Below are positions 13,580-25,312 of a DNA stretch of 26,553 nucleotides, in pieces. A program made the translations under genes and the position numbers. Origin of the DNA: Eledone cirrhosa (taxonomy: Eukaryota); NCBI GenBank assembly GCA_964016885.1, contig CAXHJY010000085.1, positions 1 through 26,553 on the forward strand, written 5' to 3'. The notes beneath the pieces are model-generated. The model saw nothing but the letters and a program-made list of their open reading frames with translations, was not told the origin of the DNA and did not search any database. The stretch's first letter is position 1. Each line of letters begins with the position of its first letter.

Positions 13580-13760
13580 TAACTGTTTCTACTTTAGGCA
13601 CAAGGCCATAAATTACCCTGTGCAATACTGGTACTTTATTTTATCGACCCCCGTAAGGATGAAAGGCAAAGTCAACCTCGGAGGGATTTGAACTCAGATC
13701 GTAAAGGGACGTAACTATGCTGGAAAGCACGGTGTCTGACCCTCTACCGATACTGCCAAT
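13580..13760 (-). mobile_element. tRNA-derived SINE (cephalopod-type, MetaSINE-like central domain)
   Basis: Minus-strand B-box GAGTTCAAATCC (13684-13695), followed by GTTGACTTTGCCTTTCATCCTTACGGGGGTCGATAAAATAAAGTACCAG. A second closely similar copy lies at 22943-23122. The family name is recalled, not searched. Confidence 0.8.
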
Positions 13761-15605: not shown

Positions 15606-16978
15606 ATCATCATCATCATCATCATCGTTTAACGGCCATCTTCCACGCTAGTATGGGTTAGACGGGTTTGTCCCACTTGAGGCAAGTTGTGTCGGGTGAC
15701 CAAGTATAGGACAGTTCCTGGCTGGTTTTCTACGGCAGATTACCCTTCCTAGCGCCAACCACATTTACAGTGTGTGCTGGATGCTTTTTACCGTGGTTGC
15801 TACTTTACAGTGTGGACTGGTGGATGCTTTTTGTCGTGACACCTACACAACCACGTTAATGGGGGCTGGATGTTCTGTGGTACCAACATAACTTTACAGA
15901 GAAAGGGTAGTGTGAGCGAAGGTGGCAGGATGGCGTAGGGGTGGGGGTGGTGAGTGGGGGTGTATATTGGGTTAAGAGGTGCCTACTGACAGTAGCTTTA
16001 AGTTCGTACGTAAGGGAAGGCGGGTCTTCTGTATTACTGTATAGCGCCAAAGATCTCGATCCTCTGGCATTGTCTTAGAAAGATGCAAGTATGCAAGGTC
16101 AACTTTTATCACCTCGTCCCAGGTTTTTTCTAGGTCTACCTACTCCGTAACTTCCACCAATTTTGATTGCCCTGCACTTTTTTATACAGCTGTCGTCCTT
16201 CATACGCATCACATGACCATACCAACGTAGTCTCCTCTTAATTAAACTGCATCTGATCTCTCTTATGCCTAATTTATCACTTAGTTCTTTTGTGTTTAGC
16301 CGTTCGTGTATATTACTATTGCACATACATCGGAGCATGCATGCTTCGTTCCTTTCCAATCTGCACAGATCCTCTGCACACAATGCCCGGGTCTCACTAC
16401 CATGTAACATTGCTGTTCGTATACACGCATCATACAATCTGCCTTTCATTTTTAGAGAGAAACCTTTTGTGGCCAGCAGCGGTATTAGCTTTGAACGGTT
16501 TCCATCCCGTTCTATCTCTGGCTATTGTACTTTCAGCACACCCTCCTTCACTGCTGATTTTGTCACCCAGGTAACGGAAAGTGTCTACTATTTCTATAGG
16601 ACCATTTGGGCAATTGAAGGAACTAGTACCCAGAACTAGTACCCAGTGGACACTTGCTACTTACTGCACCTGGGCATATATAAAACTGGCCACATATAAA
16701 ACCAACATTCTTAGATAGCTTGCCTGTGATCCCTCCACATCTTTTATGTACCCATAGTTTGCATTTCGGATATAGATTGGAATTTCTACTTACTACTTCC
16801 TGCAAACTGAGCAAGGCCATTTCCCAGAGGGCACCTGTGCTCTATCTTCCTTTCTACATACTAGAACTTTAGTCTTAGACATGTTAACTTTAAGACCTTT
16901 TGATTCTAGGCCATGCTTCCATGTTTGGAACTTCTTCTCTAGTTCAGCCATAGATTCAGCTATGAGATTTAGATCATA
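15606..16978 (-). mobile_element. 5'-truncated, decayed RTE-type non-LTR retrotransposon (C-terminal half of the RT, 3' UTR, (GAT)n tail)
   Basis: Minus-strand translation gives DLNLIAES...WKHGLESKGLKVNMSKTKVLV (~16860-16976), EIVDTFRYLGD (~16562-16594) and LYDACIRTAMLHGSET...RRLRWYGHVMRM...GRPRK (ORF 16099-16449), all typical of RTE-clade ORF2. It carries frameshifts and stops. (CAT)n at 15606-15626 is the 3' microsatellite tail. Confidence 0.88.
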
Positions 16979-20150: not shown

Positions 20151-20179
20151 ATCACCCCCTCACCTACCACCAGAGAGGG

Positions 20180-20190
20180 TATAAATACCA
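20180..20190 (+). promoter_or_regulatory. Candidate TATA box (TATAAATACCA) 30 nt upstream of the family C HHR
   Basis: The same 11-mer sits at the same 30-nt spacing in front of the homologous HHR at 25146/25176, while the intervening sequence is not conserved. Confidence 0.55.
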
Positions 20191-20209
20191 CTACATTACG
20201 TGGACAGTC

Positions 20210-20260
20210 GGCTTCCTGATGATTTCTCCCGAACGAAACGGTTCTAGTCCTGTAGAAGCC
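20210..20260 (+). ncRNA. Type I hammerhead ribozyme, family C (PLE terminal-repeat-like)
   Basis: GGCTTC CTGATGA T-TTC(TCCC)GAA-C GAA ACGG(TTCTAGTC)CTGT A^ GAAGCC: 6-bp stem I, GUA cleavage site at 20252-20254, non-canonical U-C pair at the base of stem II. Confidence 0.78.
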
Positions 20261-20291
<31 letters not shown>

Positions 20292-20802: not shown

Positions 20803-21649
20803 TCGTGTGTATGTGTGATGGCTGCAACCCGATTTCGAGTAATGCAATCTCTTGATACTTAAGTATGAGCATCACGGTCGCGGCTTTTTGGCCCTGTTAG
20901 GGATTTGTCTATGGTCAGCAATCAATGGCATGCATCGTGAAAAATGTCACATATCAAACCATGCCTCAGGCTTTGCACGGGGCCAATCACACTCCTTGAA
21001 CATCAAATGAATTTACCCTAGTAGTAGATCTACATCATTGGATCTACATCATTGGATGCAAACTAGGCACAGGTTTTATATCAATATGACCTACTCCTAA
21101 AGAAATGCCTTAATGAAGATTAAGCATCTCTCGCTCCACAAAAAAGAAAACAATTCTTTATTGGATGGCCGATAACTCTGGCCATTGACAGCATTTTCTT
21201 TTCATCCTCCAGGAAAGAAAGTCTGTGAAACAATAGTTAGGTGCACGTATGATTTGCATCTTCATTGTGAAACTCGTGGTGCACCTTCACGGAATTCAAG
21301 AAAACTATCGAATATTATGTATTCGAGATGGTCCTGATTAGTTTCCTACCTGTTTGTGTTTATGGTTGTGGTGGTTATTATGTCTGGCTAGATACATCTA
21401 GTGGCGTTATTTGTGTTTAATCTTGGCGAAAATGTATTACCTTTTAGCAGCATCGAATGCTCCGTGATCACCTCAAACAATCCGATTGGCATTTGCCCTA
21501 CTTCGATTTATACCAAATACACACACTCACACAATCGTTTATATATACAGTAGATATATATATATATATATAAAATTAGAATATATTTCTCGCCCCAGCA
21601 CAGCTGATACATACTTACATATATATATATACATATATGTAAGTATGTA

Positions 21650-21705
<56 letters not shown>

Positions 21706-21914
21706 AGTATGTATACATACATACATATATGTATACAGACATACAGTAGTATGTATATATATATACATACATGCACACATATATATATATATGTACGTAT
21801 GGATTCACCGAACATTTATTATAATGCTCGGTGTGTTTGTAAACAAACATCCCGAATTAAGCCGTACAGTGTCTAGCAACCATCGTTGCTCATTTGTTCA
21901 ACCCTTACAAAGGA

Positions 21915-21957
21915 ACTCTGTACTAGTTTCAAGCTTATTAGCTATCGTCAGCAACGT
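21915..21957 (-). ncRNA. Type I hammerhead ribozyme, family B, minus-strand copy
   Basis: Minus strand reads ACGTTG CTGACGA T-AGCT(AATA)AGCT-T GAAA CTAG TA^CAGAGT. The core is intact, stem I has one mismatch, and there is a U-U pair at the base of stem II. Confidence 0.72.
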
Positions 21958-22293
21958 ATACCTTCCTGCCAGATGTTTACAAACACACCGAGCATAATAA
22001 TAAATGTTCGGTGAATCCATACGTACATATATATATATGTGTGCATGTATGTATATATATATACATACTACTGTACGTCTGTATACATATATGTATGTAC
22101 GTATACATACTTATATTTAAGTAACAGCCGTACTAAGAGTGAGAAATGAAATTTCGTTTCATTTTTTCCATTTATCGTTGTCGGTGCACCCGGCCGATTA
22201 ACTCACTCGATATGCAGATTAAGCTGCTCAGCCGTTAATGTGCATAAGGAAAGTATATACTTTCAGACGTCCAATCATCTGGCAGGAGGGTAT

Positions 22294-22336
22294 ACAGTGC
22301 TGACGATAGCTAATGAGCTTGAAACTAGTACATCGT
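22294..22336 (+). ncRNA. Type I hammerhead ribozyme, family B, plus-strand copy
   Basis: ACAGTG CTGACGA (22300-22306) T-AGCT(AATG)AGCT-T GAAA (22321-22324) CTAG TA^CATCGT. Confidence 0.72.
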
Positions 22337-22675
22337 TCCTTTGTCATTGTTGAATAAAAGGGCAACGATGGTTGCTAGACACTACGGCTCAATACGGGAT
22401 GTTTGTTTACAAACAAACCGAGCATTATAATAAATGTTCGGGAAATCCATACGTACATATATATGTGTGCATGTATGTATATATATACATACGACTGTAC
22501 GTCTGTATACATATATGTATGTACGTATACACGTATATATATAAATATATACATATATATATACATGAATAAACATGAATAAACATTGTTGTTTCTAGTT
22601 GGGACTAAGCTAGAGTGCACTTGAGTTCATATCAAAATGAGAAAACTCATCGCTAGAACAGCCGTTAAAACAGCC

Positions 22676-22942: not shown

Positions 22943-23122
22943 TAACTGTTTCTACTTTTGGCACAAGGCCAGCAATTACCCAGTGTATTACTGGTACTTT
23001 ATTTTATCGACCCCGTAAGGATGAAAGGCAAAGTTAACCTCTGCGGGTTTTGAACTCAGTCCGTAAAGGGACGTAATTGTGCTGCAAAGCATGGCGTCCG
23101 ACCCTCTCCCGATACTGCAAAT
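22943..23122 (-). mobile_element. tRNA-derived SINE, second copy
   Basis: Collinear with 13580-13760. B-box-like GAGTTCAAAACCC on the minus strand at 23045-23057. Confidence 0.8.
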
Positions 23123-25028: not shown

Positions 25029-25044
25029 AGTTTTAATATAGATG

Positions 25045-25095
25045 AGATTCTACAGGACTAGAACTGTTTCATTCATTAGAAATCATCAGGAATCT
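25045..25095 (-). ncRNA. Type I hammerhead ribozyme, family C, minus-strand copy (intact core)
   Basis: Minus strand reads AGATTC CTGATGA T-TTC(TAAT)GAA-T GAA ACAG(TTCTAGTC)CTGT A^ GAATCT. Confidence 0.8.
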
Positions 25096-25145
25096 GGGTA
25101 TCAAAAAATAAATACGGTATTTATAGGTCTCTACAAGTAGAGACC

Positions 25146-25156
25146 TATAAATACCA
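25146..25156 (+). promoter_or_regulatory. Candidate TATA box (TATAAATACCA), mirrored on the minus strand at about 25115-25125
   Basis: Same motif and 30-nt spacing to HHR stem I as at 20180. Confidence 0.55.
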
Positions 25157-25175
25157 TATTTATTTTTTGATACCC

Positions 25176-25226
25176 AGATTCTTGATGATTTCTAATGAAT
25201 GAAACAGTTCTAGTCCTGTAGAATCT
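25176..25226 (+). ncRNA. Type I hammerhead ribozyme, family C, plus-strand copy with C3-to-U core change (probably impaired)
   Basis: AGATTC TTGATGA TTTC(TAAT)GAAT GAA ACAG(TTCTAGTC)CTGT A GAATCT. T at 25182 replaces the conserved C3. Confidence 0.7.
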
Positions 25227-25312
25227 CATCTATATTAAAACTGTTATACTCTGCTATGTATTGAGTACCTTACTTACTGTGGTTACCTCCGATTCAACCC
25301 GGAATAACGTAC

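Follow-up and report, generated by a model that had tools for sequence, protein, structure and literature searches.

The window, by which we mean the whole stretch of 26,553 nt of Eledone cirrhosa DNA that was analysed (contig CAXHJY010000085.1), contains two sites at which a TATA motif (TATAAATACCA; read from the sequence as beginning at 20180 and at 25146) precedes stem I of a hammerhead ribozyme beginning at 20210 (GGCTTC/GAAGCC) and at 25176 (AGATTC/GAATCT), respectively. The offset of 30 nt between TATA motif and stem I had been described in an initial annotation of the sequence and holds at both sites (20180 to 20210 and 25146 to 25176), as do the compensatory swaps between the two forms of stem I, for which the covariation spans three subfamilies, the unlikeness of the two stem II loops, which was seen again on re-reading, and, as a position, the predicted GUA cut about 45 nt into the ribozyme, after 20254. 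The spacers between TATA motif and stem I had been called unrelated. No more than 6 of their 19 places agree, yet graded intermediate subfamilies link the two. Stem III had been reported as ACGG/CTGT at the first site and ACAG/CTGT at the second, and the G-U pair of the former had been counted as compensatory. The letters are correct, but the pair is no good evidence of compensation or selection: ACGG occurs in 0 of the 100 core matches listed from a genome-wide search with the core pattern, and the exact core string of the first site, with its two private letters, has one occurrence in the genome versus 1,477 of the A-U form. The G-U pair was rejected as compensatory evidence on these counts and, to judge from the copies, looks private to the first site.

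The first site, copy A, is a solo, 5'-truncated pseudo-LTR (pLTR) fragment of the GGCTTC subfamily (20152..20263, + strand, start set by eye), which sits in a (TA)n tract without CCAAT box, tail or ORF and matches the full element at locus L164 with 76% over 20157-20268 (blastn). Its TATA box (20180..20187, +) lies 36 nt before the core position C3, as in 21 of 31 long copies. Its type I hammerhead (20210..20260, +) consists of stem I (20210-20215/20255-20260), the core CUGAUGA (20216-20222), a stem II of 3 bp with a Y-Y mismatch at its base, GAAA (20235-20238), and a stem III with a palindromic loop (20242-20249), followed by GUA with the predicted cut after 20254. Transcription of this copy is predicted to start at 20210.

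The second site, copy B, had been taken for a further cassette at 25146-25226. TATA motif and spacing are there, but the core is not intact, reading TTGATGA at 25182 (C3-to-T). Copy B is a head-to-head palindrome centred on 25135/25136, and the intact core, at 25089, belongs to its - strand partner, whose TATA is at 25125 and which the first reading had missed. This inverted arm (25029..25134, -; 97.5% to the L164 pLTR) has its TATA from 25125 downwards, stem I from 25095 and a (TA)n end, and is without tail. The direct arm (25137..25312, +; AGATTC subfamily; 99.4% over 176 nt to the 5' pLTR plus leader of L164) carries the TATA motif at 25146, the hammerhead at 25176-25226 with the C3-to-T change, and a tail of about 70 nt that corresponds to the ORF 5' leader in full elements, runs into (TA)n and is found on the + arm only. 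Copies A and B are both truncated before the CCAAT box, and a tblastn search of the window for the element ORF was empty. Both sites are dead pLTR end-pieces of a Penelope-like element (PLE), with no ORF to drive.

The parent element

The initial annotation had likened the cassette to a PLE pLTR, which was on the right track and too weak: the cassette is one, and elsewhere in the genome it flanks intact RT-GIY-YIG ORFs. An RT-like ORF lies downstream of the ribozyme in 2 of the first 30 loci, and the genome holds 85 junctions of pLTR, leader (the tail) and ORF. An intact 713-aa RT-GIY-YIG ORF was found in 5 of 9 loci, which had been chosen for open frames. All five have a second TATA-hammerhead cassette 2.5-3.6 kb downstream, and four (L164, L165, L167, L168) also have CCAAT box, TATA box and hammerhead upstream of the ORF; in the fifth (L172) the 5' pLTR copy is trimmed to -12. 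The ATG of the ORF lies 181 nt downstream of the start of stem I. The protein shows YRDD and YIG; its GIY-YIG domain matches PF01541 with E = 2e-4 and 21.9 bits, just under the cut-off of 22.6, and its RT part had no match in Pfam. Relatives of the protein number 1,406 at E ≤ 1e-20.

Craig et al. (2021; PMC8557442) list as marks of the Hydra clade DKT, RWK, a CxCX5C linker, CxxC, CxH, the lack of CCHH and a (TA)n target. The L164 protein contains DKT, CNCLNKEAC (the CxCX5C linker), CDLC (CxxC) and CMH (CxH), with RWR in place of RWK and no CCHH motif seen by eye, and the copies are flanked by (TA)n, the target type of this clade. It is 41% identical over the ORF to the protein of locus L195, the hammerhead of which equals, by eye, the Penelope-1_NV row, a listed Hydra member, in the accessible part of File S2. 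By these motifs and the likeness to L195 we provisionally place the element among the endonuclease-containing (EN+) PLEs of the Hydra clade. The element joins a known clade as a new member, and neither promoters in pLTRs nor hammerheads are new. With the elements described in PMC8557442 it also shares the single RT-GIY-YIG ORF, a type I hammerhead whose stem II has unpaired bases at its foot, the pLTR, the tail and the inverted arm; it differs from them in its microsatellite-rich 3' region of 2.5-3.6 kb and its more than 21,000 copies, and the hammerhead of Hydra-1_Obim is, by eye, unlike the one found here. The word TATA has 0 occurrences in the main text of that paper, which does not place the start site.

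Among 93 copies examined at their 3' ends, the short end is seen in 57, the tail in 33 and read-through into the ORF in 3. The tail of about 70 nt compares with 30-40 nt in print, and the 5'-truncated inverted arm and the optional tail are both present at 25029-25312. The family strews many small TATA cassettes across the genome. A region of 2-3 kb rich in (TA/TG)n lies between ORF and 3' pLTR in L164 (3224-5245) and also in L165, L167, L168 and L172, which is unusual against the printed Hydra consensus lengths of less than 3 kb (PMC8557442). A non-LTR retrozyme, which is made of tandem non-coding units, was also considered as the identity of the two sites and rejected, the sites being dispersed ends of a coding element; a 2026 retrozyme preprint mentions neither promoter nor TATA in the part available.

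The hammerhead

A search of the 3.0-Gb genome with the shared core pattern returned 21,329 exact matches, and 0 with the reversed control, which together with the covariation of stem I argues against chance. Stem I covaries over the three subfamilies by way of the intermediate AGCTTC/GAAGCT; 96% of its cells are paired, and two pairs are changed on both sides, with 14 cells as against 5.4 after shuffling, counts that are inflated by the kinship of the copies. Judged from the sequences, stem I has changed by two separate compensatory steps.

Copy A and the - arm of copy B have the core CUGANGA/GAAA/NUH and three stems. The G10.1-C11.1 pair is missing, its place being taken by U-U or U-C; the accessible part of File S2 shows many Hydra rows that lack it too. 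Folding prediction gives the monomer hammerhead a probability of 1e-4 to 3e-2. For stem III and its palindromic loop, pairing with a second molecule is predicted at -11 to -13 versus about -1 kcal/mol for the hairpin. Minimum free energy folding yielded no hammerhead for copy A or for either arm of copy B (z -1.3 to +0.4), and Rfam gave no hammerhead at 20180-20260 or 25146-25226 among the matches listed (150 of 340). Matches to miRNA families at 25092-25179 were rejected as products of the palindrome, far below gathering. By these predictions cleavage would require a dimer or the help of a protein and would be slow or conditional. This agrees with the dimeric and weakly active hammerheads described for PLEs (PMC4209133; reviewed in PMC6765202).

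Distant relatives were found in 77 metagenome loci with an alignment as query (proteins about 40% identical); a scan with a single protein as query had found none. A hammerhead descriptor gave 69 sense hits in 54 of these loci and one antisense hit; since the descriptor requires the core letters and NUH, 54 of 77 is a measure of presence, not a rate of conservation. These data bear on the question whether the fold might act mainly as a structural signal, bound by protein or pairing two RNAs for two-armed insertions, with little cleavage in vivo. The weak stem II of 3 bp without the usual G10.1-C11.1 pair, the strong self-pairing of loop III and the frequency of two-armed insertions would all fit, as would the finding that insertion of an anole PLE is independent of cleavage (Frangieh et al., 2024; PMC11167929). 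We nevertheless regard this role as doubtful, because core letters and NUH are kept in the 54 relative loci, with the restriction just given, and because the ribozyme of the anole element, given its protein, is able to cut.

TATA spacing and the 5' ends of copies

Further copies had been named as the place where the TATA spacing should be checked, and there it is conserved. Among 31 long copies, 28 have the TATA box 35-37 nt upstream of C3, decayed in three of these, and the other three have it at 30, 39 and 43 nt; of 33 copies in a second set, which overlaps the first, 30 show a distance of 35-37 nt. RNA polymerase II initiates about 30 nt downstream of a TATA box. The distance from the TATA box to the next motif upstream is 17, 19 or 22 nt, depending on the subfamily. 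The spacing of TATA box and ribozyme is held while the spacing just upstream drifts.

For the distant relatives, 7 of the 69 hammerheads were dropped (two doubtful, five with short flanks) and the rest clustered. Nine of the 33 clusters contain TATAWA at a distance of 33-44 nt upstream of C3 (rotation null 2.7, 0 of 2000), an interval (-44 to -33) that was picked after the matches were seen; the other 24 lack it there. With stricter clustering at 60%, TATAWA is found in 6 of 28 clusters (null 2.2, p 0.007) and TATAWAW in 4 of 28 (p 0.08). Of the six Hydra consensus sequences newly given in File S7, inspected by eye in the accessible part, about two have a TATA close to where it would be expected, and the others are without. 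The two other hammerhead families of the window have no TATA at -36.

The 5' ends were scored in 93 distinct copies from 100 loci, which were enriched on purpose for the rarer subfamilies and for which an exact core was demanded, so that ends inside the core go unseen. Sixty copies end within 8 nt upstream of C3, comprising 58 scored as such and two of the three copies scored at 12, which by eye are (TA)n matches and were pooled with the 58; one ends at -12, none between -13 and the TATA box, and 32 pass the TATA box. The modal end is -6 (18/93), which is the first base of stem I and at the same time TATA+30. Non-inverted, (TA)n-flanked junctions at stem I are represented by 363 matches (192 + 171), and the junctions listed, 100 of each set, carry a G directly ahead of stem I in 55 and 34 cases, respectively (89/200, counted by hand), against a G background in the (TA)n target of 5.6% and 1.9%. 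At the same base, long GGCTTC/AGCTTC copies have C 96 times, T three times and G once among 100 matches listed.

An extra G at this place has been attributed in L1 and SVA insertions, where it is likewise untemplated, to copying of the cap (PMC3287187). By analogy, the G found here is likely the footprint of a cap, and a capped RNA that starts at TATA+30 is the simplest reading of ends and G together. The proposal of the initial annotation that transcription starts at the 5' end of the ribozyme thereby gains indirect backing from the pile-up at TATA+30 and from the untemplated G, both read from genomic copies.

The pile-up could also be an artefact of copying, in which the cDNA folds back on stem I or anneals via the near-palindrome at the border of stem I and core, the TATA box being inherited baggage. 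Of the 76 copies without TATA match, 33 do lie in inverted junctions at this border, and in AGATTC copies fold-back of the cDNA on stem I would likewise yield G. The GGCTTC type separates the two readings: the extra G is present in 29 of 44 junctions, and in 28 of these 29 copies, which were examined, fold-back predicts G in 2 of the 25 that were readable and A or T in 23. Slippage in a run of G could account for the G of the GGCTTC type, but not for that of the types starting with A. Each type by itself has an alternative source of G; the cap alone covers both. The strict TATA is missing from most distant relatives (24/33 clusters) and the promoter of Penelope in Drosophila virilis is internal (Schostak et al., 2008; PMC2377424), as the artefact would allow. 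Against it stand the 363 non-inverted junctions, which pile up at the identical base, and the TATA spacing, which is tighter than the adjacent one and recurs at a protein identity of only about 40%. We consider an artefact very unlikely.

A spliced leader or intron, considered because of the pyrimidine tract and AG at stem I in the AGATTC and AGCTTC types, was rejected since GGCTTC lacks that AG and since the junctions abut target DNA with no common upstream exon. In L272, L283 and L129 the first 6-7 bases of the element plus the extra G are doubled at the 5' junction with (TA)n between them, which suggests repeated annealing of the cDNA end to the target.

Proposed capped template and cleavage

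If cut RNA were the template, copies should begin at the cut. AGATTC junctions with (TA)n number 10 at the cut site versus 8 at a control site with equal TA microhomology 10 nt upstream, and at least 32 of the corresponding AGATTC pattern at stem I. Seven of the 10 cut-site copies have a tail, and a few copies may derive from cut RNA.

The initial annotation had seen in the cassette a module of promoter and decapping, in which transcription starts at stem I and the ribozyme cuts at +45 and leaves a 5'-OH RNA. On this view that RNA would be what functions, if only in translation. Decapping is not supported as the usual course for the RNA that integrates: integrated copies retain the whole ribozyme and what is likely the cap G, the cut site is hardly used more than its control (10 vs 8), and the monomer fold is predicted to be improbable. 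The literature points the same way. Metazoan PLE hammerheads are poor cutters in vitro (PMC4209133), and in the anole PLE the template is mostly RNA that has not been cut, RNA reads ending at the cut are absent, ribozyme core mutants insert normally and the ribozyme needs protein to cut (PMC11167929). In favour of the module, the L164 leader has AUGs at +10, +20 and +24 (uORFs of 5, 8 and 4 aa) before the cut and another at +81, so that cleavage would strip three short upstream AUGs inside the ribozyme; core and GUA are conserved and stem I covaries; and through self-cleavage, viral 5' leaders as well as plant reporters can be translated independently of a cap (PMC13725137). A second pool of RNA, destined for translation, may be cleaved, which would be compatible with a capped template. 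As a whole, we judge promoter-plus-decapping to be unlikely.

We propose instead, with a probability of about three in four, that a TATA-driven, capped RNA polymerase II transcript starts at the first base of stem I and is copied uncut by the reverse transcriptase to its cap. The TATA box would direct the polymerase to this base, where the RNA would be capped. Reverse transcription would be primed at nicked (TA)n DNA and initiate internally, at about +67 for the short end or +136 for the tail end, as it does at internal sites in vitro for the anole element (PMC11167929); the enzyme would run off at the cap, the G being the copied cap. Most events would give run-off copies of 70-140 nt, often two per site and head to head. 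The upstream promoter would be lost in each round, and a partial tandem would be needed to restore it, possibly by a jump through the repeated ribozyme sequence. Since both window copies extend past the TATA box, they would come from RNA that had been read through a 3' pLTR.

In a bolder reading, which we hold less likely than not, the capped RNA would open with the 51 nt of the hammerhead, and these would act as a terminal repeat in the manner of the R region of LTR elements. Run-off cDNA would either integrate as a tiny copy or jump to the 3' pLTR and so rebuild the TATA box, and dimer-dependent cleavage would serve as a dose-sensing switch from capped template to a decapped pool without the three upstream AUGs; the layout would be ancient and Hydra-clade-wide and perhaps extend to Poseidon.

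Poseidon is the element of Anolis carolinensis studied by Frangieh et al. (2024; PMC11167929). It belongs to a different clade and its ORF begins inside the ribozyme. Its AT-rich target, the two internal sites at which reverse transcription begins and which define the tail, the uncut RNA as template and the protein-assisted ribozyme all have counterparts, observed or proposed, in the present element. Its printed leader has, by eye, a TATA-like run 44 nt before C3; the start site is unmapped in that study, the accessible text of which mentions neither TATA nor a cap footprint.

Penelope of D. virilis has, in the sources consulted, the only dissected Penelope promoter, which is internal and TATA-less (PMC2377424), and the 3' end of its intron meets helix I (PMC4209133). 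In the present element the putative promoter motifs lie upstream of the predicted start, like those in the U3 of an LTR and unlike those of D. virilis Penelope.

In 2013 Arkhipova et al. (PMC3846280) described in the pLTR of Pen2a from Adineta vaga a putative TATA and initiator, together with inverted head-to-head arms and a tail as found here. The TATA is not tied to the ribozyme in the accessible text, and its authors derive the junction palindromes from self-priming on an antisense template; the G footprint of the present family points instead to a capped sense template.

The 5' ribozymes of R2 and L1Tc and those of viral leaders (PMC6765202, PMC13725137) resemble the present one in that a self-cleaving RNA heads a coding leader; there the cut makes the working 5' end, whereas here integrated copies begin 45 nt upstream of it. 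A literature search of openly accessible papers and the main texts of preprints returned no TATA-defined start at a PLE hammerhead and no cap G in PLE junctions.

The role of the hammerhead in PLEs and the rebuilding of their end repeats are named as open questions in PMC8557442 and PMC11167929. Thousands of old insertions amount to a fossil map of 5' ends, which predicts the start site to a single base. For the present family this map points to a capped, uncut sense RNA as template and speaks against models with a circle, cut RNA or an antisense template. What the locus contributes is a TATA box as anchor, a comparison of subfamilies as control for the G, and a control for the cut site; its predicted upstream TATA promoter is unlike the internal one of Drosophila Penelope.

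Other repeats in window and genome

Positions 1-8594 of the window are occupied by a tandem array of 466-bp units, 15.5 on one strand and 3 on the other, with the switch near 7206. The type I hammerhead of each unit is not that of the two sites and has a long stem I (HH9-like in Rfam, 38.9 bits, below gathering); by eye, a TATA-like run precedes the extended stem I by about 29 nt. The array has the layout of a retrozyme. A third hammerhead family at about 21590-22560 is represented by two diverged arms that point apart (cores at 21951, - strand, and 22300, + strand), each followed by a similar body of about 300 nt that ends in (TA)n.

A fragment of a LINE-type RT ORF (16099-16521, - strand) resembles ORFs beside or inside many of the loci, e.g. 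L031 and L032. Two similar dispersed repeats of about 160 nt (13590-13760 and 22945-23100) are SINE-like by eye, and a related piece is present in the 3' region of L016.

A joint in L079 (1362-1438, run X2) leads back by 77 nt and hints at tandem arrays whose unit is a minimal hammerhead lacking TATA. At G000:C9:42924898-42925518, four junction matches spaced at about 200 nt suggest another small array.
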